From positions 1-44,654 of the forward strand of contig CAZWYN010000003.1 in assembly GCA_964638575.1 (NCBI GenBank): a stretch of DNA of 44,654 bases. Direction: 5' to 3'. The DNA comes from an uncultured Pseudomonadales bacterium. Lineage in GTDB: Bacteria; Patescibacteriota; Microgenomatia; UBA1400; MFAQ01. Within the stretch, counting starts at the first letter, position 1; the number at the start of each line of letters is the position of its first letter. Shown piece by piece: positions 2,484-16,970 of the stretch. The position numbers were made by a program, and so were the translations under genes. A model generated the notes under the pieces. That model saw only the letters and a program-made list of their open reading frames with translations. It did not search any database and had not been told where the DNA came from.

Positions 2484-3365
2484 ATGAGACATACTATTAC
2501 CCAAAACACTCTCATCTCCGTCATTCTTCCGGTCTACAACGCCGGGAAGTATCTCGTGGAGGCCCTTGAAAGTCTTCGTTACCAAACCTATCCCCACTTC
2601 GAGGTCATTGCCATAGATGATGCTTCAACAGACGATTCCTACAAGATTCTCAAAAACTATGCCCGAATAGACTCCCGCTTCAAGGTATATCGCAACAAAA
2701 CAAATCTCAGGATCGCCAACACCCTCAATTTCGGTCTCACCAAGGCCAAAGGGCACCTCATCGCCCGCATGGACGCCGATGACATTGCCTTGCCTAGTCG
2801 TTTTCAAAAACAGGTTAATTTCCTCACCAATCACCCCGGTGTTGTCATTGTTGGTGGCCAATGTCTCACCATCGACAAAGATAGCCATCTTACAGGAAAA
2901 AAGCTCTTCCCCATAAACCACATCGCCATTCACGAGCTTATGTTCACCGCCAATCCCCTGCAACACCCTGGTATCATGATCAATCGAAGATTGTTACCTC
3001 AAGACTTCGTTTGGTACAATCCCCATCTCACTCCCGCCGAAGATCTCGATCTCTACTTCCGTTTAGGCAAATTTGGTCTTTATGCCAACCTCAAATCTAC
3101 TACCCTCATGTACCGCCAGCACGGAGACTCAGAAACCTTTAGAAACCCCAAACACACCTTCCATGTCACCCAAAAAGTTCGTCGTCTCGCCGTCAGCAAA
3201 TATGGCTACAAACCAAACTTAAAATCCAGACTCTTAGCCGGAACCCAGTCCCTCATCCTCTCTGTTATTCCCAGTGCCCTCATTTTTCCTCTCTACACTT
3301 TCCTTAGAGGCACCAAGATCAAAGAGAAACTCGAAAACCTCAACCTCCGTTTAGCCTCAAACTAA
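2484..3365 (+). CDS. Glycosyltransferase family 2
   Basis: ISVILPVYN, IDDASTD, ARMDADD, AEDLDL motifs; TTGACA(2443)-17-TATCCT promoter. Confidence 0.92.
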   Translation: MRHTITQNTLISVILPVYNAGKYLVEALESLRYQTYPHFEVIAIDDASTDDSYKILKNYARIDSRFKVYRNKTNLRIANTLNFGLTKAKGHLIARMDADDIALPSRFQKQVNFLTNHPGVVIVGGQCLTIDKDSHLTGKKLFPINHIAIHELMFTANPLQHPGIMINRRLLPQDFVWYNPHLTPAEDLDLYFRLGKFGLYANLKSTTLMYRQHGDSETFRNPKHTFHVTQKVRRLAVSKYGYKPNLKSRLLAGTQSLILSVIPSALIFPLYTFLRGTKIKEKLENLNLRLASN

Positions 3366-6300
3366 GGAATAAAGGGAGAGAACTTTTTCGCAAATACTTT
3401 TATAGGTGTAGGAGCATTCAGCGCCATATCTACCCTATACGTAAATTTCTCGGCTGGAGCCGTGTTATTCACTACCCCCATATCTCTATTCAAGTTTATA
3501 CCAGTCCACCCCACAAACGACCCTTGGCCATCAAGCTGAGTGTCCGTCTTATCGCAGGTTCCGAGCGGAGCCACCGCATCACTACAAGGGGCGCTTATAC
3601 TCTCCGCCACAAACCATCCCTGTGCCGTAGTCAAATTTGAATTAAAGATGATACTGTCTTTGGCAATTACTCCCAAGAACGCCCCGTTTGGTACTGTGAC
3701 ATTGTTGCTCACTGTTACATTTCCATCTACTAACAAAATTACTTTTTGTATTCCCGTTGGTCCGCTGTAATTTAAAGTTACGTCCCCCGTATGTTTGAAT
3801 ATCTGATATCCCCTTCCTCCGTCATCATAGCTGATAACTCCCCCATCCCACGCCGTGAAGGGAAACACATCCATTCTTGTTTTGTAAAAATTAAAGTCAT
3901 AGCGCAACCCCTCATAGAGACTCTGGATTCTCCACAAAGCACTGCTCACCCCCGCATTGGGATTACTCCCCAGCTCTGTTCCCTGCCAAACAAATCCATG
4001 ACTCAGTACCCCCACTCTTCCGTCCGCATTAGCCAAGATCAGTTTCTGGTTAGCTGCCGGGCTCACACTTGCGGGGACATAACTCTTTAATCCGCTCCTT
4101 GCATAAACGCTTCCGCCCACTGCCTGCCACCATCCGCTATACACTCTCCAAAAACCGGTATCTTTTGTCACCGTTTGTCCCTGGGTGGTCAAAGACACCG
4201 ATGCCCCCTGACACTGGAGTTTAACTCCGGACACTCTACCCGAGGAAATAAGGCTGGCATAATCAAAAGAATATGTTCCGTTGACTGTCGAGGCATAGAC
4301 CTGCTCGGTATAGTTTCCATTGGCATCGGTACTAACCGGTGCCGTAATTGCCGGCCACAAACCAAGAATATCAAACGCTGCACTACCCAATCGTAAGGGA
4401 GCATATCCTGGGTCTGTCCCAATAGTGGCCGGACATGAGGAAAGATCAGAAGCGTCAAACAAAGTTCCTTTAATCGTTCCTATACAATCCTCGGTGATCA
4501 CTCCGGCCACAGCTCCGGCTGCCGTACAGTTATCTGTTCCGCAGGTTTCTGTACATGTTCGAGTTCGTTTATGATTGCCATCACAGGCTCCCCATGCTCC
4601 AAGTACTGCTCCGCCCTCCACACACACCGTCCCCATTTTCTTCCAGCTTGGTCCACCCGGGTGCCATAACAGCTCGTTATCCTGTACCATTGCATAGTAG
4701 TTGTAGTTTCCGCCGGGAAAGTTAGTCGTCGTTACGTTAAACACCGAGGTCCAGTTGTTTCCCAGTCGAGTGTCACTGACGCTATTAATCCTTAATGTCC
4801 CCAAAGCATTTGTAAACGGCGCTACTGTACCCCACGGAGTAGGCGGGCTAGCCAATGTGCCTGTACAGGCCGCACCCGTATTGTTATTTGCCACATTAAT
4901 ATTTGCCCCACCATACGTAAATGCTCCGAAATAATTAGCATTATTGTGCTCAAAATTACTCCAGTTTGCACTCCCCGGATCAACACTACAGTTATTAAAC
5001 GCAAAAAAGACTCTTCGCAAATCGGTCGCGCCGTCGGCATCACTCGTCACCACCGTTAAGCTGGCATTACCATTAGACAGAATTGTCGAAGGAGATGTGG
5101 AAACAATTGTAGGAGCGTTGTTGGTCACACTAAAGCTCCAAATCGTTGACCAACCGGAAGCCGAAGGATTCGTATTGTCTGCTTTCACTTTCCAGTAGTA
5201 TGTTCTGGGTAACGAATCGGGGAAGGTATAAACTTGAGAAGTAGTTCCACTACCTACAGTAAAAACCGATCCTCCGCTGCAGGGATCACCGGCATTTGTA
5301 CCGGCACAGACTTGATAGTCTCTACTGGTCGAGCTGCTACACTCCGTCCCCCAGTTACTTATACCGTTCCAGGTTAATGTCACTGCCGTTCCTTTAACAC
5401 TCGCCCCATTAGCTGGACTGGCTAATGTTGGTGTATCCGGACCACTTGAACTACAACACGGCTCAGTAGCGGAACAACTAGTAGTTCCGCAAGATCCATT
5501 TGGAACAGTACCGCCAGGATAACCACAGGATGTTGGACAACTCTGTGCTGCCGGACACGAAATCCAATCACAACCATAATTGGTTACACATTCTGTTACC
5601 GCACACTGACCACCACCACTCGGACACTGGCTTTCAGTTTTATAGCCACAAGACTTTGGTATTCCATTACCTACACAAACATTACAATCACAGTTTCCAT
5701 TACCACCAGGTCCGCACTCCGTGCCGTTACCTGTACATGAGAAACCGGTAGTATCACAAACGCAAGCGTAGTCACCACACTCATAATCACCGTTGCATGC
5801 CGCATACACCGTTCCTACTATCGAAAAAGCTTTCCTAGAATTTGAAATTTTTATGATTACCGGCCTATTTTTCTCTTTTTGAACATAGCTTTTCAAAAAC
5901 TCCTTCATCCTTTCCTGTCTCAGGTATGACTCATACTTGGGATAGTAATTTACTAGTTCAAATAAGCTCTGTATCATTGTGTATTCAAAGCTTTGCGATA
6001 AAACCAAATCCCCGCCCTCAATTTCGTCTCTATTTATATAAATATATATATTCATTGTCTTACTACCCTCCTCATACCTCTGCCCAAAAGAAGATGCCAT
6101 TACTCCTTCCACTCCATAACCTCTCATATAACTTTGTTCCTTATCCGTATAAACCACATTTACTTTCTCGACCCTCACACTTGTAATTGGACTATCTAGC
6201 GACTCTCCCATTATCGGCATCCCAACCCCTCTTGTAAGACCTAAGAGTTTCAGATACTGCACCATCTTTATCTGATTGACAATCTTTATCTGTTTCCCCT

Positions 6301-6421
6301 CCACTTGCGAAACAACTTTAAAATCCACATACTGTCGAAAACTAAGGCTGATAAAAGTAGCAGTTCCAATAGCCGCCAAAGAAAGAAACACCAATAAATA
6401 TATGATGAATTTTCTTATCAT
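3362..6421 (-). CDS. Large membrane-anchored Cys-rich surface protein with FN3/Ig-like domains
   Basis: N-terminal TM; Cys/Gly-rich block; PTLASPANG...LTW...YYWKVKA (FN3-like); NNAPTI...DADGATDL (Ig-like). Confidence 0.7.
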   Translation of the reverse strand: MIRKFIIYLLVFLSLAAIGTATFISLSFRQYVDFKVVSQVEGKQIKIVNQIKMVQYLKLLGLTRGVGMPIMGESLDSPITSVRVEKVNVVYTDKEQSYMRGYGVEGVMASSFGQRYEEGSKTMNIYIYINRDEIEGGDLVLSQSFEYTMIQSLFELVNYYPKYESYLRQERMKEFLKSYVQKEKNRPVIIKISNSRKAFSIVGTVYAACNGDYECGDYACVCDTTGFSCTGNGTECGPGGNGNCDCNVCVGNGIPKSCGYKTESQCPSGGGQCAVTECVTNYGCDWISCPAAQSCPTSCGYPGGTVPNGSCGTTSCSATEPCCSSSGPDTPTLASPANGASVKGTAVTLTWNGISNWGTECSSSTSRDYQVCAGTNAGDPCSGGSVFTVGSGTTSQVYTFPDSLPRTYYWKVKADNTNPSASGWSTIWSFSVTNNAPTIVSTSPSTILSNGNASLTVVTSDADGATDLRRVFFAFNNCSVDPGSANWSNFEHNNANYFGAFTYGGANINVANNNTGAACTGTLASPPTPWGTVAPFTNALGTLRINSVSDTRLGNNWTSVFNVTTTNFPGGNYNYYAMVQDNELLWHPGGPSWKKMGTVCVEGGAVLGAWGACDGNHKRTRTCTETCGTDNCTAAGAVAGVITEDCIGTIKGTLFDASDLSSCPATIGTDPGYAPLRLGSAAFDILGLWPAITAPVSTDANGNYTEQVYASTVNGTYSFDYASLISSGRVSGVKLQCQGASVSLTTQGQTVTKDTGFWRVYSGWWQAVGGSVYARSGLKSYVPASVSPAANQKLILANADGRVGVLSHGFVWQGTELGSNPNAGVSSALWRIQSLYEGLRYDFNFYKTRMDVFPFTAWDGGVISYDDGGRGYQIFKHTGDVTLNYSGPTGIQKVILLVDGNVTVSNNVTVPNGAFLGVIAKDSIIFNSNLTTAQGWFVAESISAPCSDAVAPLGTCDKTDTQLDGQGSFVGWTGINLNRDMGVVNNTAPAEKFTYRVDMALNAPTPIKVFAKKFSPFIP

Positions 6422-6435
6422 TACTTAATCTTATC

Positions 6436-7941
6436 TCATTTATTTTTTGCGGCAAAAATATAGTGTGTCTTGATCCACAGAAGCGACTCTTCGAGAGTAG
6501 TAGTAGTACCTCTAGGTCTTAGCGTTTCAGTTCTTACGTCAAAATCAAAAAATATACTATCTTTATCTAAATCTTGATTACCTTTTCGCTCTACCAGTCT
6601 AAAACTCGTGTATGGCATCATTCCCAAGGCGTTTCTTAAATTTATTCCCGCGAAAGCGTAACCTTCAATAAGAGAAAAAGCCTCAGGTTCATCTTCTTTC
6701 AAAAATAAATTTTCATCAATGAAGCTCAATCTCACACCCAAGCCCGAATACATAATAAATTTTCCATCATCAAAACCATATCCTGAACTTATCGTCGTCT
6801 GCCCTGGAAAATTCATGTATAGTTCTCCATCCAGCCCACTGGTATATCTCATCTCGATACTCTTGACTTGATCTATTGTTAGTGTTTGTTCCGCTATCTT
6901 CCCCTCATCGTCTCTTAACATTATTTTCGCTGGATAATTGCCGGGATTAGCTACATACTCATCCAAACTCACATTCATCTTATTTTGGAAATTATATGTA
7001 TCCAAAAATGTATAAATAATTGCTTTTGCCAATAGTTCTCTTGCGCCAGGTTTGTTTTCATTGAAAAGAAGTGACTCAACTCCATATTTATCAAAAGTAC
7101 TCTTTGTTATTTTGTCACTTTCAAGCATCGAAAATTCCAAATCAAACTGGTATCCAGAATACTCAATTTTTTCACTTAACAATATCCTCTTTTGCTCTAC
7201 AGGTGCCACTTCCTGAGTCGCCGTCGCCTCCGTAGTTGGCGTAACCTCCAAGGTCGGTGTCTCACTTACTCCAGGTGCTGTTTCCGTCACTCCTGGTTGG
7301 AATGGTGTTTCCGTTATCCCTATATCTACCGTCTCTGTCACTCTTGGTTGTGTCTCGGTGGCCGTGGCGTTAGGTGTCACTATCTCCACACTAATTCCGC
7401 AAGCCGAAAGTACCATTCCCCCAATTATCACTGCGGCTGCCAGAGTTTTTTTGGACAGTACTCCGTGAATGACCTCATCCAGACTGGTATTTTCCCTTTT
7501 GTCACCTAGGATTTCTTCACGCACTTTCTCGATTTCCCTCTTGTAATCTTTAATCTGAAAAGCTACCGCCGGATATACTTCTTCGGCAATATCCGAAACC
7601 ACTTTCATCTTTGCTTCGGTCAAAGCCATTGAGTAAACCAGCTCTTCCTTGGTTGCTTTCTCGTCCAATGACCCAATTCCTTTTTGGTCAGCCACATCAA
7701 ATTTAATTACGTTCAGTCCTCTGTCAGACGACAAACTAGCCTGTATATCGGGAACCTTTCCTTCTTTAAACTTTACTGCCCCTATCCAACTTTCGATATC
7801 TTCATGGTCAAACTCTCCTTCTGTATTTGGGAACAGTTTTTTAGAGTCAACCTCCATGGCGGAAGCCATCTCCCGCACCAAACCGTCATATGTATGGCAA
7901 TATATCTTCTCTTCCAAAAAATGCTCAGTTCTGTTTTCCAT
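6436..7941 (-). CDS. Hypothetical membrane-anchored protein with internal lipobox-like LSAC and T/P/E-rich linker
   Basis: 501-aa ORF; KKTLAAAVIIGGMVLSACG followed by VTET-type repeats. Confidence 0.7.
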   Translation of the reverse strand: MENRTEHFLEEKIYCHTYDGLVREMASAMEVDSKKLFPNTEGEFDHEDIESWIGAVKFKEGKVPDIQASLSSDRGLNVIKFDVADQKGIGSLDEKATKEELVYSMALTEAKMKVVSDIAEEVYPAVAFQIKDYKREIEKVREEILGDKRENTSLDEVIHGVLSKKTLAAAVIIGGMVLSACGISVEIVTPNATATETQPRVTETVDIGITETPFQPGVTETAPGVSETPTLEVTPTTEATATQEVAPVEQKRILLSEKIEYSGYQFDLEFSMLESDKITKSTFDKYGVESLLFNENKPGARELLAKAIIYTFLDTYNFQNKMNVSLDEYVANPGNYPAKIMLRDDEGKIAEQTLTIDQVKSIEMRYTSGLDGELYMNFPGQTTISSGYGFDDGKFIMYSGLGVRLSFIDENLFLKEDEPEAFSLIEGYAFAGINLRNALGMMPYTSFRLVERKGNQDLDKDSIFFDFDVRTETLRPRGTTTTLEESLLWIKTHYIFAAKNK

Positions 7942-8205: not shown

Positions 8206-8544
8206 TTAATATATTAACTCAGATATCACTATATCTTTTGCTGAAGTGTTAGAAAATACTTTCTCTAATTTATCTTTAGAGACAGTATCATTACAGGTCA
8301 TAAGATCGATATGTATAGACGAATACTCGGGCCAAGTATGAAGTATTAAATGGGACTGAGACAAAATCCAAACTTTTGTTAAACCGTGGAGGGTAAATTC
8401 AAAGTCTGTTTCATGAACAACCTTAAGTTCCAAGTCTTTAATTACTTTCATACTAAGATTCTGGACGTGGACACGATCCGGAATAATATCGGCGTTTAAA
8501 ATAATCTTAACGGCAAAATGGTTATAGTATGGGAATTTATTCAT
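8206..8544 (-). CDS. speD: Pyruvoyl-dependent S-adenosylmethionine decarboxylase-like proenzyme
   Basis: GLT..ILSQSH..LHTWPEY..IDLMTC; cleavage site reads QSH instead of ESH. Confidence 0.8.
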   Translation of the reverse strand: MNKFPYYNHFAVKIILNADIIPDRVHVQNLSMKVIKDLELKVVHETDFEFTLHGLTKVWILSQSHLILHTWPEYSSIHIDLMTCNDTVSKDKLEKVFSNTSAKDIVISELIY

Positions 8545-9523
8545 TTGTGTAAAACTTCCCGTAAATCTCAGTCAGTTTGGTTTTTGGTGTCCAATCAAGA
8601 AGATACAACGAACTAGAACTGCCTATACTTTCTGCGCCAGTATATTTATTAAATTGAAAATACTTCGAATGAATTAGCAGTTCTTTATCGGTAATAATTT
8701 TCTGGATCTCGAGCTCTCTTTCCCGAGCTCTGTCGCTGTTCCCATAACAAAGGTAAAGCCTTGACGTGTATCTCTTTCTTAATAGCTCAATTCCACGATT
8801 TAAAAACAACGAAATACCGCTAGGGGTATACGGAGGATCAGTAAATACTGAGTCAAATTGAGATAGATAATCCTTTGGAAATGCAGAGCGCAAATCTCTT
8901 TTAATAACCTCTATGCCTAGATTGTATTCTGAAGAAATTTTTTCTATCAGTGAGGTAATTCTCGTGTCGATCTCGAAAACGGTAATTCTTTTGGCTTGCT
9001 TGGTAATACCAACCGCAATCGAAGTCAAGTCGTCATCACCCAAGAACACAACGCTTCTTTTGTAAAGATCCCCATTCTTCGCCATTTCCGATGCCCGTCT
9101 AGAAGTTGTGATTGCTGTGGCGGTAAACTGATCATACTGTCTATCAGGGATGGGCCTAATTTTTTGAATGTTCTCAAGTACCTCCCTAATTGATTTCTTA
9201 TCGATATTTTTAATTTTAGTTAGACTCTCAGTTACAAACTGATGTATTTGATTTTCATTATCTTTCAATTCAACCCTGCTAGTAGGTGGCATCAGAATTT
9301 CTCTGAAAAACTCAAGTATTCTCTTAAAATGAATTTCTGGGAAACCAAATTTTCTTAGGAGAAGTTTAGAATCAATTGATTTGTTCTTCGAAATATTATC
9401 CAGTAAGGCAAAAATATCTTTTTCCCTGATATCTAAAACAATACTGGCGTCAGAAATCTTTCTATTAAGTTCTTTTTCATCCATCGTATTTCTATTATAT
9501 CGCTTGGAATTGTTTGTGCTCAA
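8537..9523 (-). CDS. BpsA/DUF43-family aminopropyltransferase (branched-chain polyamine synthase-like)
   Basis: RP.PDRQYDQ, FLGDDDLTSIA, EID.R, TDPPYT motifs; overlaps the speD-like gene. Confidence 0.8.
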   Translation of the reverse strand: MSTNNSKRYNRNTMDEKELNRKISDASIVLDIREKDIFALLDNISKNKSIDSKLLLRKFGFPEIHFKRILEFFREILMPPTSRVELKDNENQIHQFVTESLTKIKNIDKKSIREVLENIQKIRPIPDRQYDQFTATAITTSRRASEMAKNGDLYKRSVVFLGDDDLTSIAVGITKQAKRITVFEIDTRITSLIEKISSEYNLGIEVIKRDLRSAFPKDYLSQFDSVFTDPPYTPSGISLFLNRGIELLRKRYTSRLYLCYGNSDRARERELEIQKIITDKELLIHSKYFQFNKYTGAESIGSSSSLYLLDWTPKTKLTEIYGKFYTNE

Positions 9524-10611
9524 ACTCTCAGTCTATTTCCTAATTTTATTGCTCTTTGGTATACATCCTCTAACAATACTTCATTTACTTTATTTTTTTC
9601 ACTCGAAGTATAGCCTCCACAAAGAAGACCTAGAAATTTGTACGTAGTATAAACTTCCATGAGATTAAACCTGTCAGAGAAACTAGGATCCAAAACTCCC
9701 GCATTTTTCTCCAATAGATGAAGGTATTTCATTAATATTTGTTCTCTATTAGAATCATCTATATATCCAGACTGTGATCCTTGTTCAAAAAAGTATGCCA
9801 TTTCCGCAGCTCTGTCACCAAAATGAATGTATTCAAAGTCAATTAGTCTTACCCCGTTTCTAGTTTTGAGAATATTTTCCGGATGTAAGTCCCCATGTAA
9901 TAGTGAAAAACTAGGAGGCATAGCTATATTTTTTATATGTGCAGAAAGATATTCTTCACCAGATCTAACTAGCTTACTAACTTTATCTAAAAATAATATG
10001 TCGAGATTGTTCATGTTTCTACCTATATTGAGTGAGTCATAAACCCTCCGATACCATTCAACCAACAGGTTAAAATATGAATCTTTGTGCAATAACATAT
10101 CGTCTACAACCGCATTTTTTAAGGCTCTAGGAGCTACTTCTAGTGGATTAAATTTCTGAGAGGTTGTTTTGTGTAATCCTACAATTGCTTTTAAAATATC
10201 ATTCATTAAAGAATCCGTAACCACCGGCTGTTTTTCTTTTGGTTTATCAAAATATCCCAATTGTTTACCCTCAATCCATTCGACCACTACTTCCCTGGTG
10301 TTACTATTAATGTATCTAACTTCGGGAAACAACCCTATATCATTTTTTAAGGCCTTAACTCTTTCAAACTCGAGAAACTTAGAATCCGTTTTTGCATGAA
10401 TGTATGCTAATTTGGAGCTGCTGTCACCAAGATAAAATATCGTAGTATCCGCCTTCGGTTTACAAAAAAGTTGCTTAACTATTTTTGGTGAAGCCTTTTC
10501 ACCTCGTTTAAGAATCATTGGACCAGAGCTAATTATCTTGATTCTTTCAGTTATTTCGACGTGTTTTTTATTATCCGATTCGTCTTTATGAATGTTGTAG
10601 GACATCTTCAT
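9520..10611 (-). CDS. Aminoglycoside phosphotransferase/choline kinase-fold kinase
   Basis: LLHGDLHPENIL and LIDFEY..GD motifs. Confidence 0.85.
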   Translation of the reverse strand: MKMSYNIHKDESDNKKHVEITERIKIISSGPMILKRGEKASPKIVKQLFCKPKADTTIFYLGDSSSKLAYIHAKTDSKFLEFERVKALKNDIGLFPEVRYINSNTREVVVEWIEGKQLGYFDKPKEKQPVVTDSLMNDILKAIVGLHKTTSQKFNPLEVAPRALKNAVVDDMLLHKDSYFNLLVEWYRRVYDSLNIGRNMNNLDILFLDKVSKLVRSGEEYLSAHIKNIAMPPSFSLLHGDLHPENILKTRNGVRLIDFEYIHFGDRAAEMAYFFEQGSQSGYIDDSNREQILMKYLHLLEKNAGVLDPSFSDRFNLMEVYTTYKFLGLLCGGYTSSEKNKVNEVLLEDVYQRAIKLGNRLRV

Positions 10612-10643
10612 TTTTATGATAAAATGTTGTCGTTAATTATATT

Positions 10644-11291
10644 ATGGGAAAAAGAGTATTAATAGTAGCTGCACACCCAGATGACGAAGTCCTGGGGTGT
10701 GGTGGAACGATTTGTAAGCTCGTCGAGGCAGGCAATCAAGTTTCCATACTATACTTATCTTCGGGAGATAACATCGAATCTATTCGGGAGGAGGAGGCAA
10801 AAGAAGCGTGTAAATTCCTAAATATTAATTCGTATTTTTTTCTTAGATTAAAGGGTTCAGAATTTGTGGTAAAACAGGAAAATATTAATCAAATAATTTC
10901 GGTGTTTTCAGAGATTAAGCCCCAAATTATTTATGTCAACCACGACGAAGATGCTGATTTTGAGCATCTCACTGCGAATAAACTCGTGAGCGAGTCACTC
11001 TGGAGATATAACGCACTTGCATCGAAGGATAATCGCATTATGGCACTCGTTCTGTATGAAGTACATAAACCAATGTCATCCTACAACTTGATCGAGGATG
11101 TTTCAATTGAAATGGACAAAAAAATGAATGCCATGACTATTTACTCTTCTCAGCTCAAAACAACACGATGGGATCTAGCCATAAAGGGATTAAACCAGTA
11201 CCGAGGATTGTTACACGACAATTTAAAATATGCGGAAGTCTTTCAAATCAAAAAGCTTTCATCAATTCTTCCATTGCTTGATTCTATGTAG
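10644..11291 (+). CDS. PIG-L/LmbE family N-deacetylase
   Basis: AAHPDDEVLGCGG, REEEA..AC; second motif DFEH (variant of HxDH); YAEVF C-terminus. Confidence 0.88.
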   Translation: MGKRVLIVAAHPDDEVLGCGGTICKLVEAGNQVSILYLSSGDNIESIREEEAKEACKFLNINSYFFLRLKGSEFVVKQENINQIISVFSEIKPQIIYVNHDEDADFEHLTANKLVSESLWRYNALASKDNRIMALVLYEVHKPMSSYNLIEDVSIEMDKKMNAMTIYSSQLKTTRWDLAIKGLNQYRGLLHDNLKYAEVFQIKKLSSILPLLDSM

Positions 11292-11350
11292 TTTTTTGAT
11301 TGAGTTTATTCTCGATAAGTTTCAAACACCGAAATATAAATAATCAAAGA

Positions 11351-12169
11351 TTACTTTCTAAGTTTAAAAACCTCCTGAACATGATATCCAAAAAGTGTAG
11401 TCATTTTCCAAATAAAGAGGTAAATTCCTGTTAAGATTCCCTTTTCTTTAGATGCGTCAAAAACGTATTTTCTAAAACTATCAAATACACCTTTAGGTTT
11501 ATCACGTACCCCAACTTCAACCCCAATCCTTCTGCCCACCCCATACCAAAAAGAGCTTTTAAGATCTGAATATATGCTAAGTGCAGGATGGTACACTACT
11601 GCCGTTGGGTTATATGCGATTTTGAGATTTGCTTTATTGACTCTCATATCAAACTCACTATCTTCTGACCAACATAGACTGGGATGAAAATAGAATCCAC
11701 CTATATATTCCCTAATTTTTTTTCTAAAAAGTAAGGGTGGCGAATAAGCACTAACTTTGTCTGATGTGTGATATTCTCGTGCCCTTGCAATAATAGAGGT
11801 CAGCCAGGAATTTCTACCAAACACCACCCTCCCTTTCGACAGTAGATTATTGCCTAAGTTAGTGTCCAATTTTCGTATAGTTTCTTTTTCAAAAATACAA
11901 TCTGAGTCCATTAACAAGATTTTGTTATACGAAGAATGTTCTATGCCATTGTTGTATGCTCTCGCAATACTAGCTTCGCTAATTTGGCATACTATAATGT
12001 GCAAAAAATTTTTGGAATTTTGCTCTTTTATTATATTTTTTACGAGTTTTCTTATATTTCTCGACGGCTTATTTAGAGATATAACTACCTCAACTTTTTC
12101 ATCGATAGATTCAATACAATTTTTCAACCTAAGATCATTACTGACTGGGATTACGATAGAAAGTTGCAT
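11351..12169 (-). CDS. Glycosyltransferase family 2
   Basis: LSIVIPV, AYNNGI, LMDSDC (DxD), SEDSEF motifs. Confidence 0.85.
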   Translation of the reverse strand: MQLSIVIPVSNDLRLKNCIESIDEKVEVVISLNKPSRNIRKLVKNIIKEQNSKNFLHIIVCQISEASIARAYNNGIEHSSYNKILLMDSDCIFEKETIRKLDTNLGNNLLSKGRVVFGRNSWLTSIIARAREYHTSDKVSAYSPPLLFRKKIREYIGGFYFHPSLCWSEDSEFDMRVNKANLKIAYNPTAVVYHPALSIYSDLKSSFWYGVGRRIGVEVGVRDKPKGVFDSFRKYVFDASKEKGILTGIYLFIWKMTTLFGYHVQEVFKLRK

Positions 12170-13860
12170 TATTTTGAAATTATAAAATCGCCGATTGCGA
12201 GATAATCGGTTTTATTAGAATAAAACGATCTAATTGCGTCGATCGGATTACAAACGATTGGTTCCCCTTTTCCATTAAAAGAAGTGTTCATTATTACAGG
12301 AAACCCACTTAATTTTTTGAATTCTAAAATTAAATTATAGTATTTTGGATTCGTTTCCCTTAAAACAGATTGAGGTCTGGTTGTACCGTCAACGTGTACG
12401 AGTGCAGGTAGTTTTTTATAATATTGTTTCTTTACATTGAAACCGACAATCATGAATGGGGAGAAAACTGAGTTTTCTAAATACTTATCCATTTCTTCTG
12501 CTATAAAACTTGGAGCTAGTGGTCTCCAATTCTCTCTATCTTTGGCTTCATTAAGTTTGTTATGCGTTTTTGGTAAACAAGGGTTCCCAAGAATACTTCT
12601 ATTACCCAATGCTCTTGGTCCAACCTCCATTGGTCCTTGAAACCAAGAAATTATTTTTCCCTGAAAAATAAGCTTTGCTATTACCTTAGTAATGTTGTTC
12701 ACTTTTTTATATCGTATAGAGTACTTATCTAGCACCTTTTTAATTTCCCTGTTGGAAAATTCTGGTCCCCAACTAGCACTTATTAGCGTCTTTTTGGGTT
12801 TATTTTTTGATAATAATAACGCTGCCCCTACTGAAACCCCAATATCATTAGGAAAAGGTGGAACAAATAGCTTATCGACTAAACCTGATTTAATTATTTC
12901 TCCATTCAACATGCAATTAAGTGCTACCCCTCCCGATAGACACAGGTTTTTACATCCGGTTTTACGTACGGCTTTATCAACTAGATGCAAAACGGTTTGT
13001 TCTAAAATCTTTTGTGCGGATGAGGCGATATTTTTATGTCTTTGGGTTAGGTGTAAAGACTCGCACAATCGTGAATTAGTTAAATTATATGTAACTCTGG
13101 GCACATTGCGATCTCCCATTCTGGATAATGCTCGCAACCACGTATCTGAAATCATTTCTTCTTTATCTAATCTTGGTTTGTTCTCTATTCTAATGTTCTC
13201 TCGCGGTTTGATGTTTACCTTATACCCATCGGTTGTTAGTTCAAATTCTCTGAATTTATAGATAGGCAATCCGTAAGAAGCCAAACCCATCGTTTTTCCT
13301 GCATTCATAAAATCAAAACCCAGATACTGGGTAATAGCGTCATAAAAAAATCCCAAAGAATCCTTTATCGGAAATTTTTTCAGAATATTAATTTTCTCGT
13401 TTTTTCCAAGTGCGACCGATCCAGAATCATCCTCACCTTGACCGTCAAGTGTTATGATTGTTGCTTTTTTAAACCCAGAAAAATAGTAGGTCGAAGCAGC
13501 ATGAGCGAGGTGATGGTCAACCAATTCAATTCGAGGCTGTTTTATATATTTGAAGTACTTTTTAGGAAAATATACTTCTGCTAAATCCTTTAATTTCGGT
13601 TCTTCAACTCCCGCATTCCCATACAATTTATTAAAGTTCCAGCCAACACCAACTATATCCACATCATCTAAGGTAATTCTTGCTTTTTTTAGACAATAAG
13701 CAATAGAATTATATGGCACTTTTCCAAAAGCATGTTTGCTCCTAATAAATCTCTCTTCCTCTGCCATAGCAACCAACTCTCCATTTCTCAGAAGACATGC
13801 AGAAGCGTCGTGCGTTCTTTTAAACCATCCATTAATGCCAAGAATATATTCTGTTTTCAT
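12169..13860 (-). CDS. O-carbamoyltransferase (NodU/CmcH/TobZ family)
   Basis: HDASACL..EEER, DHHLAHAAS, DGQGE, GGVALNC, GPRALGNRSIL, WRPLAP, HVDGT.RPQ, NTSFN.KGEP. Confidence 0.95.
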   Translation of the reverse strand: MKTEYILGINGWFKRTHDASACLLRNGELVAMAEEERFIRSKHAFGKVPYNSIAYCLKKARITLDDVDIVGVGWNFNKLYGNAGVEEPKLKDLAEVYFPKKYFKYIKQPRIELVDHHLAHAASTYYFSGFKKATIITLDGQGEDDSGSVALGKNEKINILKKFPIKDSLGFFYDAITQYLGFDFMNAGKTMGLASYGLPIYKFREFELTTDGYKVNIKPRENIRIENKPRLDKEEMISDTWLRALSRMGDRNVPRVTYNLTNSRLCESLHLTQRHKNIASSAQKILEQTVLHLVDKAVRKTGCKNLCLSGGVALNCMLNGEIIKSGLVDKLFVPPFPNDIGVSVGAALLLSKNKPKKTLISASWGPEFSNREIKKVLDKYSIRYKKVNNITKVIAKLIFQGKIISWFQGPMEVGPRALGNRSILGNPCLPKTHNKLNEAKDRENWRPLAPSFIAEEMDKYLENSVFSPFMIVGFNVKKQYYKKLPALVHVDGTTRPQSVLRETNPKYYNLILEFKKLSGFPVIMNTSFNGKGEPIVCNPIDAIRSFYSNKTDYLAIGDFIISK

Positions 13861-13861
13861 T

Positions 13862-15016
13862 TTAAATATTATTAACGCTTCTTATAAATTTAATTCTTTT
13901 ATTGATTTTCTTTTGGTATCTTTTGTAATTCAATTCCAGAAATATTTTCAAATTCTTAGATAATACGCTTTTTTGTTCGTTAAGGGCAAAAAGAAAATCA
14001 AGTCTTCGCTCTGCATGTAACGAATCGAAAGAATTAATGTATGAATTTTGTATTAACTTCTTCTTATCAAGAAAGGGGTTAACCTTAAAATTTTCAATCT
14101 CTATTCCTGCACAACAAAAGACCACCGCTCTGTTGATACACGCTTTGCATACACCACAGTTATTGCCAAAATAACAACTAACAGTTTCATTTACGGTTAA
14201 ATTATACTTTTTCTCCCACTTATTGTGCCAATATGCTAGTATTTCCGGTTTGGTTATATTCATAAATGGTGTTGTCACAGAAATATCTTTACCGTACAAA
14301 TTTGATAATATTTTTGAAGCTGATTTAAAAAATCTTTTACTCTTATCAGTATGGGTCGTGTTTATCTCCTCTTGGTGAGCACAAATCCAAATCTTAGATT
14401 TTTTACTTTTAGATAATGATAAAACCGAACCTGCAATGGCAGCAAATAAATAATTCCTTGCCGGAATTATTCCCAATTTCCACCGCTTCCAGTCCTGATC
14501 AATATATTCATTAATATCTATCATAATAATTAGCGGTTCAATATTTAGTTTTTTTAATATTCTTTTAACATAAACAATTTCTTCTTTTTCGTTTTTTTGT
14601 CCAAAACCTACATATACAGGTTTCACCTTAAGTTTCTTATCCAGAGCATATAATAAGCCGGCTGTGCTGTCAGCTCCACCACTAAACGAAAGAATTAAAT
14701 CGTAATCGTCCATACCATTTTGGAGAATATGATTATCCGATCCATCAAAATCTATATCTATGTTAAAGGTTCTTGGTGCAGCCCTTTTATCATTTAATAC
14801 ATAAGATAGAAACCGATTAAAAAAATATTTATCAACGAATTTTTTGCCCTTTATAACAATCTTATCGAATTCCAAATATCCCGCTAAAACAGTTAATAAT
14901 GCAAGTCTAACCGAAACATCTACGAGCTCGTTTTGCATACCACTTATTTTTACGTCGTCAATCTGTTTACCACCAATTTTACCCAACATCATATTAAGTT
15001 CTTCTTTTTGTGCCAT
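13862..15016 (-). CDS. queC: QueC-like PP-loop ATPase (7-cyano-7-deazaguanine synthase family), enlarged and divergent
   Basis: SFSGGADS PP-loop, IPARN, SCY...CGVCKACINR Zn site; ~100-aa N-terminal and ~80-aa C-terminal extensions. Confidence 0.8.
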   Translation of the reverse strand: MAQKEELNMMLGKIGGKQIDDVKISGMQNELVDVSVRLALLTVLAGYLEFDKIVIKGKKFVDKYFFNRFLSYVLNDKRAAPRTFNIDIDFDGSDNHILQNGMDDYDLILSFSGGADSTAGLLYALDKKLKVKPVYVGFGQKNEKEEIVYVKRILKKLNIEPLIIMIDINEYIDQDWKRWKLGIIPARNYLFAAIAGSVLSLSKSKKSKIWICAHQEEINTTHTDKSKRFFKSASKILSNLYGKDISVTTPFMNITKPEILAYWHNKWEKKYNLTVNETVSCYFGNNCGVCKACINRAVVFCCAGIEIENFKVNPFLDKKKLIQNSYINSFDSLHAERRLDFLFALNEQKSVLSKNLKIFLELNYKRYQKKINKRIKFIRSVNNI

Positions 15017-15806
15017 ACCAAATTAATTGATTTCTAATTGCTATTTTCCAACCTTCCTTATTGACGGCTTGTTGGACATTTAGCTTGTGAAGTTCAACAT
15101 CAGAGACTGTGTGACCCTCCGGCATTATCAAAATCTTTTGTTTTGGGAGTTGGCACTCCTCCACGATTGAACGAATCTCAACAAGATCTTCATTGTTTAC
15201 CACCACAAACTTAAACCACGAGTTTTTTAGAGCACCAATGTGTCTCAAGACATCGGGCTTGTATCTTAAACTTAGGTCATTTCCACTATTTTCTAACTTT
15301 GGTGAGCAATTAAATTGACATAATGATAATTCAACTCTTGGTAATATGGTCCCATTTGTCTCAATTTCTATATTCCAATCAGGAATAAGTTTGAGAAGTT
15401 CGACCACTTTGTCCTGTTGAAGTAATGGTTCGCCACCTGTTAAAACGAGTCTTTTGTTCGAATCTCTAGGATAACTTTCTGACCAAGCCTTGTTAATTTC
15501 GTTAACTGTATACAGGTAGTCCCAATCAACCGGTTCTTTCCAGTATTCAGACCTTGACTTATCCCAGGTGTATCCAGTATCACATTTCCAACCTCTCTTG
15601 AAACCACACGCTAGATTACAATAATGAAGTCGTAGAAATATTGCAGGCATCCCCACGGATCCGCCTTCTGCAGGCGTGAGTCCCTCTCCTTGTCTAGTCG
15701 AAAATATCTTGTCGCCACTAATTTTAAGTTCGTTTTTGTGAGGACTAATTCTAAGAAGATCCTCAGGCATTGGTTTGTGGGGTAACTTGTTTCTTTTATC
15801 TGACAT
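14994..15806 (-). CDS. queE: 7-carboxy-7-deazaguanine synthase (radical SAM)
   Basis: IFSTRQGEG, FLRL..CNLAC..CDT, LTGGEPLLQ, IETNGT, SPKL motifs. Confidence 0.92.
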   Translation of the reverse strand: MSDKRNKLPHKPMPEDLLRISPHKNELKISGDKIFSTRQGEGLTPAEGGSVGMPAIFLRLHYCNLACGFKRGWKCDTGYTWDKSRSEYWKEPVDWDYLYTVNEINKAWSESYPRDSNKRLVLTGGEPLLQQDKVVELLKLIPDWNIEIETNGTILPRVELSLCQFNCSPKLENSGNDLSLRYKPDVLRHIGALKNSWFKFVVVNNEDLVEIRSIVEECQLPKQKILIMPEGHTVSDVELHKLNVQQAVNKEGWKIAIRNQLIWYGTKRRT

Positions 15807-16248
15807 CTTTTTGTTTACAAATAACCAAACTTGTGGGTGTTTCCCAAAGTTTTACAGAATGTAACTTCAAACCTGTGCCAAAACGGTCTGCAAATAAAGG
15901 TTCAAGCTTCTTGAAGCTCCATGCGGCAATATTTTCGGCAGTAGTTGTAAAGGGAACAACAACATGTTTAAGTTCAGGATTTTTAGAAAATAATTTTACA
16001 AGTAACTTGTCTCTGTCCCAAATCATAAAACCGTGATCAAGGACGTCATGAATGTTGCTTAAAGCAATATCTTTTATTTCCCCAAAGTCAATCACCATTC
16101 CTTCATTAGACGATCCTTTTTTTGAGATTAAGTCTCCCTCTAAAATGATCTCCATTTTATATCTGTGGCCATGGATGTTTTTACATTTTGAATGGTGGTT
16201 CAATACACGATGACCCATGTCCCATTCTATCTGCTTGCTAACTTTCAT
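15796..16248 (-). CDS. queD: 6-carboxytetrahydropterin synthase
   Basis: GHRV...[30 protein letters not shown]. Confidence 0.95.
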
Positions 16249-16837
16249 TTTTAACCTCCATTCTTGAATCGGTATCTTGATAGAATTGTTTTACCAGATC
16301 TTGATCTCTTTCAAAGATACCTCTTTTTATACTTGTTTTTGTTAAAAATCCCTTTTTTTTGACACCGCGCATACTCACACATAAGTGTTCGGCTTCTATG
16401 TATACGATACTTCCATCTGGATTGACATATTTTTCAATCGCATCTGATATCTGCCTAGTTAAATTCTCCTGGGTTTGCAAGCGTTTCGAATATATATCAA
16501 CAATTCTTGCGAATTTCGACAGTCCAAGAACTTTACTGTTCGGAATATAGGCAATGTGAACTTGCCCGTAAAAAGGTATCATGTGATGCTCGCAAAGGCT
16601 GTAGAAATCTATATTGCATACCGTTACCAGGTCGGAGTATCCATTACTATCAAAAAGTTTAATTACATTTGAAACATTCTGACCATATCCTGATAGAAGC
16701 TCGGAGTACATTTCCACCACCCTCTTAGGGGTGTCCCTAAGACCTTCTCGATTGGGATCTTCACCATGAGCCAAAAGAACCTTTTCAATCAGGTTCTTCA
16801 AATCCTTTTTGTTTGATACCTCAATATTGTGTTTCAT
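16238..16837 (-). CDS. folE: GTP cyclohydrolase I
   Basis: [42 protein letters not shown]; start re-assigned to ATG 16837 (MKHNIE). Confidence 0.95.
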
Positions 16838-16838
16838 C

Positions 16839-16935
16839 GCAGGTTTTGTCGGTCCACACTTTCGAGTGGCAGACCTGCTACCGTTGCAAGTTTTAACGGT
16901 CCATCTCACTGGATGGCTGACTTGCCTACCGTAGT
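16839..16935 (-). ncRNA. Candidate tandem structured cis-regulatory RNA (two pseudoknot units) in the folE-queD-queE-queC leader
   Basis: Two ~47-nt direct repeats with compensatory changes in two stems; lies between an extended -10 promoter and the folE ATG. Confidence 0.7.
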
Positions 16936-16941
16936 ATTTCT

Positions 16942-16970
16942 ATTGTAACACCTTATGGGCTGTGGTTAAA
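16942..16970 (-). promoter_or_regulatory. Extended -10 promoter for the folE operon
   Basis: Minus strand TGtTACAAT at 16950-16942, weak -35 TTTAAC at 16970-16965; predicted start ~16935. Confidence 0.6.

Follow-up and report, generated by a model that had tools for sequence, protein, structure and literature searches.

A conserved tandem leader RNA ahead of a folE-queD-queE-queC operon as a candidate new class of 7-deazaguanine riboswitch

Three structural classes of preQ1 riboswitch were counted in a 2024 review (PMC11625349). According to that review, the specificity cytosine of preQ1-I lies in an AC or UC directly 5' of the 3' strand of helix P1, and preQ1-II and preQ1-III are HLout pseudoknots of ~80-100 nucleotides (nt) with four or five helices and a buried Shine-Dalgarno (SD) sequence, preQ1-II being confined to Bacillota (PMC11625349). 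All three classes are listed in Table 3 of a survey as never found in tandem, and Table 1 of the same survey expects tandem aptamers to give a steeper response (PMC9481103). Riboswitch control without an SD sequence and tandem aptamers for a deazapurine ligand are named as open problems in the review (PMC11625349). Here we describe an RNA element from a 44,654-nt stretch of DNA (contig CAZWYN010000003.1, hereafter the window) in which two head-to-tail units of 47 and 46 nt occupy minus-strand positions 16932-16839, in front of folE, the first gene of a folE-queD-queE-queC operon. We are close to certain that this element is a real, conserved cis-regulatory RNA. Judging from its sequence and gene context, it is on balance probably a translational OFF riboswitch of a new class that responds to preQ1 or preQ0 and acts on initiation.

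Both units in the window share one order of parts, namely a 5' word (S1a), loop 1 (L1), the 5' strand of an outer helix (S2a), a segment J, a hairpin, a second word (S1b), loop 3 (L3) and the 3' strand of the outer helix (S2b). Unit 1 (16886..16932, 47 nt) consists of S1a ACGGU (16932-16928), L1 AG (16927-16926), S2a GCAAGU (16925-16920), J CAG (16919-16917), a hairpin (16916-16901, with arms 16916-16912 and 16905-16901), S1b ACCGU (16900-16896), L3 UAAA (16895-16892) and S2b ACUUGC (16891-16886), and its helices are backed by covariation in relatives. Unit 2 (16839..16884, 46 nt) follows after a single A (16885) and consists of S1a ACGGU (16884-16880), L1 A (16879), S2a GCAGGU (16878-16873), J CUG (16872-16870), a hairpin (16869-16854), S1b ACCGA (16853-16849), L3 CAAA (16848-16845) and S2b ACCUGC (16844-16839). 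The folE AUG (16835..16837) is preceded by a G (16838) and thus stands 1 nt after the end of unit 2. Upstream, a consensus scan located a promoter-like site (16942..16969, minus strand) with a -35 box TTAACC (16969-16964), a 16-nt spacer, a TG (16950-16949) and a -10 box TACAAT (16947-16942), which places the predicted transcription start near 16935, ~3 nt before unit 1. The two units differ in ways that preserve pairing, the outer helix being GCAAGU/ACUUGC in one and GCAGGU/ACCUGC in the other (A-U to G-C) and the hairpin exchanging a U-A for a C-G pair. A reading of this DNA made from the sequence alone had placed the tandem units at these positions, and the minus-strand sequence agrees; it had also described both compensatory differences, which are real, the 1-nt distance from unit 2 to the AUG, which the sequence bears out, and the TG-extended -10 with a start ~3 nt before unit 1, where the scan indeed finds the promoter-like site. 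Sequencing runs that contain the locus are all of DNA or of unknown type, with no RNA run among them.

Several lines of evidence indicate that the element is a structured RNA, as the sequence-only reading had held, and neither a protein repeat nor a product of chance. The two-unit pattern has exactly two matches in the 44.6-kb window, has none in 100 dinucleotide-preserving shuffles, and recurs at no further site in the ~728-kb, 50-contig genome. In addition, relatives show compensatory changes. That reading had proposed a covariance-model search for relatives upstream of folE and que genes, and such a search, using a model built from the window's two units (R1) and a second model built from ten units (R2), yielded 16 further loci with compensatory changes; R2 scores units 1 and 2 of the window at 57 and 55.9 bits. 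Overall the motif is present at 17 loci (the window and 16 others) comprising 26 units and one degenerate copy. Ten of the 17 loci are tandem, one of these having a degenerate first unit, and seven are single; the linker measures 0-1 nt in all nine full tandem loci. Among 80 FolE-anchored loci from one-genome-per-species contigs the motif was found in two: L008 (Candidatus Shapirobacteria, FolE 62% identical), which has the same tandem, and L010, which has a weaker single unit. Seven of 80 FolE-anchored metagenome loci also carry it, five recovered by R1 (L089, L091 (tandem), L092, L093 and L095) and two, L088 and L096, spotted by eye as a longer form like that of L010 and scoring only 11.8 bits with R2. 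An unanchored R2 search of L008's order matched nine of 132 genomes, and eight of these have the real motif, seven with two adjacent units and the eighth with one good unit after a decayed one. Finally, in the window's own family, genome G856, whose FolE is 61% identical, carries one unit with exactly the sequence of the L095 unit.

Other searches returned nothing new or nothing real. Neither R1 nor R2 matched any of 150 other genomes of the window's order, no FolE was found with this query in five genomes of the window's genus, and R2 run on a 151-genome sample of the class of G151 recovered two genomes that were already known. Two R2 matches were rejected: G534 (29.5 bits, in a 151-genome phylum sample), which lies antisense inside a coding sequence, and L306 (G247, 22.7 bits), which lies antisense inside a 415-codon open reading frame (ORF). 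A degenerate pattern gave at least 118 stretches on viral contigs, and none of the 80 loci scored with R2 was real. The exact long L010-type pattern matched 12 of 285 genomes of G152's order, of which only G152 is real, and the reversed control of this pattern matched at least as often. In every genome searched the motif was seen solely at que-type operons.

The shared architecture is well defined. Units are 41-59 nt long and open with a conserved 5' word (A/G)(C/U)GGU(A/G); an S2 helix of 5-6 base pairs (bp) encloses a hairpin of 4-6 bp that is followed directly by an NCC(G/A) word, then by a UAAA(A) stretch and, reaching to within 0-2 nt of the AUG, the 3' strand of S2. Covariation was counted in a model-based alignment (A8) of 24 rows that contains the false L306 row and, for unit 2 of L305, a misaligned hairpin; per-column statistics use 23 rows, with L306 dropped. 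The three long-type units (L010, L096 and L088) lie outside the covariation counts, their helices having been read by eye, and MAFFT alignments (of 13 early units and of the three long units) misplaced helices and were not used for the counts. Pairs changed on both sides occur at five of six S2 positions and at all five hairpin positions of A8. Standard pairs fill 87.7% of its cells versus 74.5 +/- 1.2% in 500 shuffles, 0/500 of which reach 87.7%, and sliding the 3' partners by 1-3 columns lowers the paired fraction to 23-40%. RNAalifold, using its own structure prediction, arrives at the same two helices with 9/10 pairs compensated. The versions of S2 include GCAAG/CUUGC, GCAGG/CCUGC, GUAGG/CCUAC, AUAGG/CCUAU and ACAGAA/UUCUGU, with GUUGGG/CCCAAC in the long form.

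Conservation of unpaired positions is equally striking in the 23 rows: G3, G4 and U5 are present in 23/23, the CC after the hairpin in 22/22, the AAA in 23/23 and U61 in 19/22, with A or G at position 1, C or U at position 2 and A or G at position 6. A C at column 14, just 3' of S2a, occurs in 18/23, and the remaining five units have a C one or two positions off. On sequence grounds, such conserved unpaired bases would be typical of a binding core. The idea that the hairpin mimics a tRNA-like substrate of TGT was dropped, as the loops, read by eye, share no UGU.

A further pairing, S1, would join the 5' ACGGU to the ACCGU that follows the hairpin. S1 is not part of the model structure and the alignment was not fitted to it. 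Its GG/CC core never varies; pair 5-56 is U-A in 16 units, U.G in three and unpaired in three; pair 2-59 is C-G in six units (seven rows if L306 is counted), U-A in four, and C opposite A in 12/23; and at position 1 an A goes with U60 in 12/17 and a G with A60 in 5/6. The geometry is sensible, with loop 1 (1-2 nt) crossing the 5-6-bp S2 and an A-rich loop 3 (4-10 nt) running along the 4-5-bp S1, and we regard S1 as plausible from its sequence, with weak support by covariation. Of the H-type pseudoknot that had been proposed from the window, the element order and geometry are plausible and the covariation of S1 is weak. The claim that CGGU/ACCG is invariant is true inside the window, and across relatives GG/CC alone is invariant. 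An inter-unit helix ACCGUU/AACGGU had also been put forward as a switch, and it is possible in that both units carry identical S1 words. Its conservation among relatives does not exceed that of pairing within a unit, so this claim gains no specific support; the helix is one of the GGU:ACC swaps described below.

Some independent support for S1 comes from a shorter folE-leader variant present in G156 (L330, G156:C8 ~6822-6857, minus strand), which belongs to L008's order, and in G854 (L328, G854:C56 2105-2150, minus strand), which belongs to the window's family. Its sequence reads UCGGCUAG(C/U)AGAGCC, 11-26 nt, UCU(G/A)C, one nucleotide, AUG. In this variant, known in a 33-nt form, GGCU is followed by an A, S2a and then directly AGCC, the inserted hairpin is absent, and an S2 pair covaries (C-G/U-A) between the two examples. 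We read it from these two sequences as a plain H-type pseudoknot. Scanning 401 genomes with the short-variant pattern gave three matches, all in GC-rich coding-like sequence and attributed to chance; the controls gave six.

No known RNA family accounts for the motif. Rfam 15 places no family anywhere in the window at the gathering score, and at E up to 10 its only matches to the window leader are a frameshift site and a miRNA, both at E >6. Scans of the leader and nine relatives' loci gave unrelated families at E >=0.06, and within the relatives' loci these matches all lie outside the motif units. In nine folE loci that are motif-less or divergent the scan matched only a tRNA, and the G156 leader gave nothing relevant. 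The PreQ1 model RF00522 matched 0/132 genomes of the motif-rich order, with a positive B. subtilis control, and had no match at E up to 10 on the leader, the nine relatives' loci or the short variant. This is congruent with the sequence-only reading, in which the units had been judged to be neither preQ1-I, preQ1-II or preQ1-III nor THF-II. We found no published account of the motif, of a preQ1-IV class or of a riboswitch from the Candidate Phyla Radiation (CPR); supplementary candidate lists could bear on this novelty.

The position of the motif relative to transcription and translation signals is constant. The first unit follows a -10-like box at a distance of 4-12 nt, and the AUG follows the last S2b by 0-2 nt, at each of the 17 loci. 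No SD sequence precedes the motif-linked AUGs, none being seen between unit 2 and the folE AUG of the window, and S2b itself (ACCUGC, ACUUGC and so on) is not SD-like. When 16 gene starts in the window were inspected by eye, few had a GGAG/GAGG-like stretch upstream, which indicates that the organism mostly initiates on A/U-rich unstructured leaders. Control of translation initiation, as had been proposed for the window, would fit this placement at the 5' end with an abutting AUG in every locus. The AGG in S2a was judged to lie at the wrong distance to serve as an SD sequence.

The genes behind the motif point to one pathway. folE is the next gene in 13/17 loci, with queD and queE after it wherever the sequence suffices, a count that is inflated by the FolE-anchored searches; the unanchored search of 132 genomes is the fair sample. 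Its eight genomes comprise four with folE-queD-queE, one (G203) with queE-queC and three (G231, G240 and G220) in which a leader ORF of 42, 42 and 26 codons, respectively, starts 1-2 nt after the motif (L301 1594-1722; L302 1371-1499, minus strand; L305 1418-1498, minus strand). At the two of these loci that were examined, L301 and L305, an AUGA joins the stop of the leader ORF to the start codon of a 106-codon T-fold gene (L301 1719-2039; L305 1101-1421, minus strand), which lies between the motif and a Vut_1/YhhQ-family transporter gene (E ~1e-45) that is followed by queC. The N-termini of the leader ORFs (MKNY.., MKH..) resemble the first codons of motif-bearing folE genes. The T-fold protein has weak QueF and GTP-cyclohydrolase-I matches (E 1e-5 to 4e-4, below cut-offs) and is the best QueF-like match in the QueA-bearing genomes G231 and G220; by this likeness it is a candidate for a divergent preQ0 reductase or a new T-fold enzyme. 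Neither folE nor cluster genes of the kind described below occur in the ~1.5 kb downstream of the three T-fold/YhhQ/queC loci. In other bacteria yhhQ is reported to be controlled by preQ1 riboswitches of more than one class, and its product has been implicated in the transport of preQ0 (PMC5372724). Within the 132 genomes, the nine strongest QueC matches (E <=2.4e-22, a cut chosen after seeing the list) are those of the eight motif genomes and of G156, which has the short variant. Since the motif also precedes queE-queC and folE-less T-fold/YhhQ/queC operons, the common denominator of its regulon is 7-deazaguanine in the form of preQ0 or preQ1. For the same reason, of the ligands suggested from the window, a preQ0-type 7-deazaguanine fits, and GTP, a pterin or the cluster product fit less well, given the operons that lack folE.

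In the window itself, folE (16238..16837, minus strand, 199 codons) encodes a GTP cyclohydrolase I (Pfam PF01227, E 4.1e-68; NCBIfam FolE over its cut-off). It is followed on the same strand by a queD-like gene (16248-15796), a queE-like radical SAM gene (15806-14994) and a long QueC-like gene (15016-13862, 384 residues), the four frames overlapping or abutting. The last three have clear Pfam or NCBIfam matches that score below the NCBIfam equivalog cut-offs, and therefore appear to be divergent members. The QueC domain of the long protein begins at residue 108, behind an N-terminal extension of ~100 residues with no Pfam match; QueC has 253 residues in L010 and 224 in L292. The genome (~729 kb, 93.7% complete) matches the 16S model in five pieces (G000:C19:13234-15513), which suggests insertions in the rRNA gene. 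Such insertions are often reported for CPR bacteria, and we read the small genome and the fragmented 16S match as signs of a CPR bacterium. TGT and QueA genes stand side by side in this genome, indicating that it makes queuosine-type tRNA and uses preQ1 on tRNA. A canonical QueF was not found: no QueF reached the cut-off in this or five other motif genomes, where the best QueF matches fall on FolE itself or on the motif-linked T-fold gene.

The operon sits inside a larger cluster (8206-16837, minus strand, and 10644-11291, plus strand) with genes for a NodU/TobZ-type carbamoyltransferase, a GT2 glycosyltransferase, a PIG-L deacetylase, an APH-like kinase, a BpsA-like aminopropyl transferase and an S-adenosylmethionine (AdoMet) decarboxylase (8206-8544, identified by Pfam). 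Two further minus-strand ORFs of the window, 3362-6421 (1019 residues) and 6436-7941 (501 residues), match no Pfam family at E <=0.001. The L008 cluster (L292, G151:C21 223-9693) encodes a DHQS/Fe-ADH_2-like enzyme, PIG-L, a DegT aminotransferase, GT4, a GFO/IDH/MocA oxidoreductase, a methyltransferase, QueC and a large radical SAM enzyme, and in L010 QueC is followed by a carbamoyltransferase. At L007/L090, L088, L094, L010 and L096 the frame ending just upstream of folE resembles AdoMet decarboxylase, a judgement made solely from an HTWPE-like stretch read by eye in the DNA. Going by its likeness to aminoglycoside gene sets, the whole appears to link 7-deazaguanine synthesis with a pathway of the aminocyclitol/aminoglycoside type in these CPR bacteria. 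The window units also share unit-specific S2 words with L008's order (GCAAG in unit 1, GCAGG in unit 2). These shared words, together with the lack of a FolE match in the five same-genus genomes and of the motif in the order sample, suggest that a horizontal transfer may have brought in the operon with its leader.

The motif shows the general features of a riboswitch, that is, a structured leader with covarying helices, a conserved core and one pathway in differing operons. Beyond that, we infer each of the S1 pairing, the ligand identity, the OFF logic and the cooperativity. In the mechanism that we propose, the ligand would bind at the three-way junction of S1, S2 and the hairpin, at the nearly invariant unpaired C, which by analogy could be the counterpart of the preQ1-I specificity cytosine, and would lock the pseudoknot. 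Binding would fix S1 and dock the AAA stretch of loop 3 in the S1 minor groove. On an mRNA that has no SD sequence, the locked fold would bury the only A-rich segment that is single-stranded (-7 to -16), as well as the bases as far as -1, so that the 30S subunit would be blocked and the operon turned OFF when the precursor is plentiful. At tandem loci the upstream aptamer, 0-1 nt away, would share one expression platform and would probably sharpen the response by stacking or cooperativity. At the three leader-ORF loci, control would be passed downstream by translational coupling.

Several observations weigh against this proposal. One is that the minimum-energy fold of the isolated unit is already S2 plus hairpin in 14/26 units, so that a ligand-induced change is something that we infer; in the other 12/26, the GGU of S1a or S2a competes for the ACC of S1b or S2b, and in these predicted folds the GGU:ACC swaps could represent the ligand-free state. 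A second is that half of the units have a C.A mismatch in S1, and the four U-A units at pair 2-59 are the first units of related genomes and may reflect a single event, so S1 is not established by covariation. A third is distribution, as the motif is absent before similarly close FolE genes (57-64% identity) at L007 (=L090), L009, L087 and L094. Sampling is narrow and partly biased, most units coming from one order and the FolE-found loci necessarily being folE leaders, and R2 gives false matches of up to 29.5 bits. Finally, in the window, L008 and L010 the operon forms part of a larger biosynthetic cluster; this context, and the lack of a canonical QueF in the six motif genomes, mean that the effector could be preQ0 or another deazapurine and not preQ1. 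A bolder version of the riboswitch proposal, which we put forward tentatively and think rather unlikely as a whole, takes up this last point: the motif would be a fourth, CPR-borne 7-deazaguanine class with preQ0 as its natural effector, in which two stacked aptamers gate SD-independent initiation cooperatively. The preQ0 effector is suggested here by the carriers' lack of a canonical QueF and by the several operons that feed a secondary-metabolite-like cluster.

An explanation that we likewise consider rather unlikely, and that deserves the first hearing among the alternatives, is that the motif is a very divergent member of preQ1-I, with the same H-type pocket, a hairpin inserted in loop 2 and a longer P2. 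The element order and the regulon are the same, a conserved C occupies the equivalent of L2 (PMC11625349), and the 33-nt variant shows that a hairpin-less form exists. Against this, RF00522 finds nothing even at E 10 in the leader, the relatives or the short variant, and nothing in the 132 genomes; the 3' strand of S1 lacks the preceding AC or UC, and ACGGUA and ACCR are not consensus words in the review's account (PMC11625349). Common descent of RNAs of 35-45 nt is moreover undecidable by sequence.

Less probable still is a riboswitch for some other ligand, such as 7-carboxy-7-deazaguanine, queuine, GTP or guanine, a pterin, or the end product of the cluster. Most known instances precede folE, the GTP-consuming first step, the operons of the window, L008 and L010 run into carbamoyltransferase, glycosyltransferase, PIG-L, DegT and DHQS-like genes, and the failure to find a canonical QueF in six motif genomes would also suit such a ligand. 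However, the instances include three folE-less T-fold/YhhQ/queC loci and one queE-queC locus, so that all of them share nothing but a 7-deazaguanine intermediate, and a transporter under the motif argues for a salvageable base (preQ0 or preQ1), not GTP or a pterin.

We think it improbable that the leader is bound by a protein, a trans-acting regulator that recognises the ACGGU/CC/AAA core and blocks initiation. The unpaired conserved bases and the AUG-proximal site would fit a protein equally well, and a tandem could bind a dimer. Yet no candidate gene for an RNA-binding regulator recurs beside the motif across the three operon types, the genomes are small (0.6-1.1 Mb) and have few regulators, and the pathway-specific regulon equals that of the known preQ1 riboswitches.

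More doubtful again is a constitutive leader, a 5' stabiliser or a fixed translation damper or enhancer that senses nothing. The ligand-free folding predicted for 14/26 units would suit this, and 5'-terminal structures commonly protect mRNAs, whereas invariant unpaired bases, a constant spacing of 0-2 nt from the AUG and confinement to a single pathway are not things that a stabiliser would require, and in the genomes searched the motif occurs only at que-type operons. The last alternative, in which the repeats would be DNA sites bound by a transcription factor shortly after the promoter, can practically be set aside: the units do lie within ~100 bp after the promoter and ACGGTA is nearly palindromic with TACCGT, but the arms covary while sequence and spacing vary (loops 3-10 nt, units 41-59 nt), as suits pairing in RNA and not contacts between protein and DNA, and strand and register to the AUG are kept in every locus.

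Should the proposed preQ1 or preQ0 riboswitch hold, the motif would be a new structural class beside the three preQ1/preQ0 classes of the 2024 review, and a natural case of both of the open problems named there (PMC11625349). If the bolder version with preQ0 as effector and cooperative aptamers is right, no earlier tandem sensor of a deazapurine would be known, nor any earlier riboswitch class found chiefly in the CPR. Gene regulation in the CPR is, to our knowledge, almost unknown, and the motif would be among the first regulatory RNAs defined in these bacteria. Its size (41-59 nt), the 33-nt hairpin-less variant and the occurrence of single and tandem forms would make it a convenient subject for work on cooperativity and on how pseudoknots fold. 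The motif further draws attention to an unusual CPR cluster that would couple 7-deazaguanine synthesis to aminoglycoside-like sugar chemistry.

Comparison with described systems shows where the motif is alike and where it departs. The THF-II riboswitch, or folE motif, is associated with folE, and the motif shares this location; it differs in that Rfam finds no match and in that queE and yhhQ/queC operons lie behind it too, a distribution that speaks against folate. Glycine and guanidine-II riboswitches also have two like aptamers head to tail at one regulated start (PMC9481103, Table 1), but the motif differs from them in fold and presumed ligand, and its second unit is optional (single in 7/17 loci). 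PreQ1-II and preQ1-III are, in the review's description, pseudoknots that contain an additional embedded hairpin and control a que/transporter regulon at the level of translation (PMC11625349), all of which recalls the motif; unlike them, it has units of 41-59 nt with the hairpin between S2a and S1b, and no match to their models at E up to 10.

The closest likeness is to preQ1-I, which is also a small leader RNA before genes for queuosine-precursor synthesis and transport. The order of elements (P1a-L1-P2a-L2-P1b-A-rich L3-P2b), the short loop 1, the 3' helix strand adjoining the translation start and the conserved unpaired C at the loop-2 position are common to both. There are several differences. 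PreQ1-I is compact at ~34 nt, whereas motif units carry a hairpin of 13-20 nt inserted at the helix junction, and S2, with 5-6 bp, is predicted to form alone in about half of the units, unlike its counterpart in preQ1-I. The 3' strand of S1 is preceded by the 3' arm of the hairpin and not by the AC or UC of preQ1-I, and the conserved C lies 5' of the hairpin. In translational preQ1-I riboswitches the 3' strand of P2 holds part of the SD sequence, and S2b of the motif is not SD-like. Finally, 10/17 motif loci are tandem, in contrast to preQ1-I, preQ1-II and preQ1-III, for which that survey lists no tandem forms (PMC9481103).

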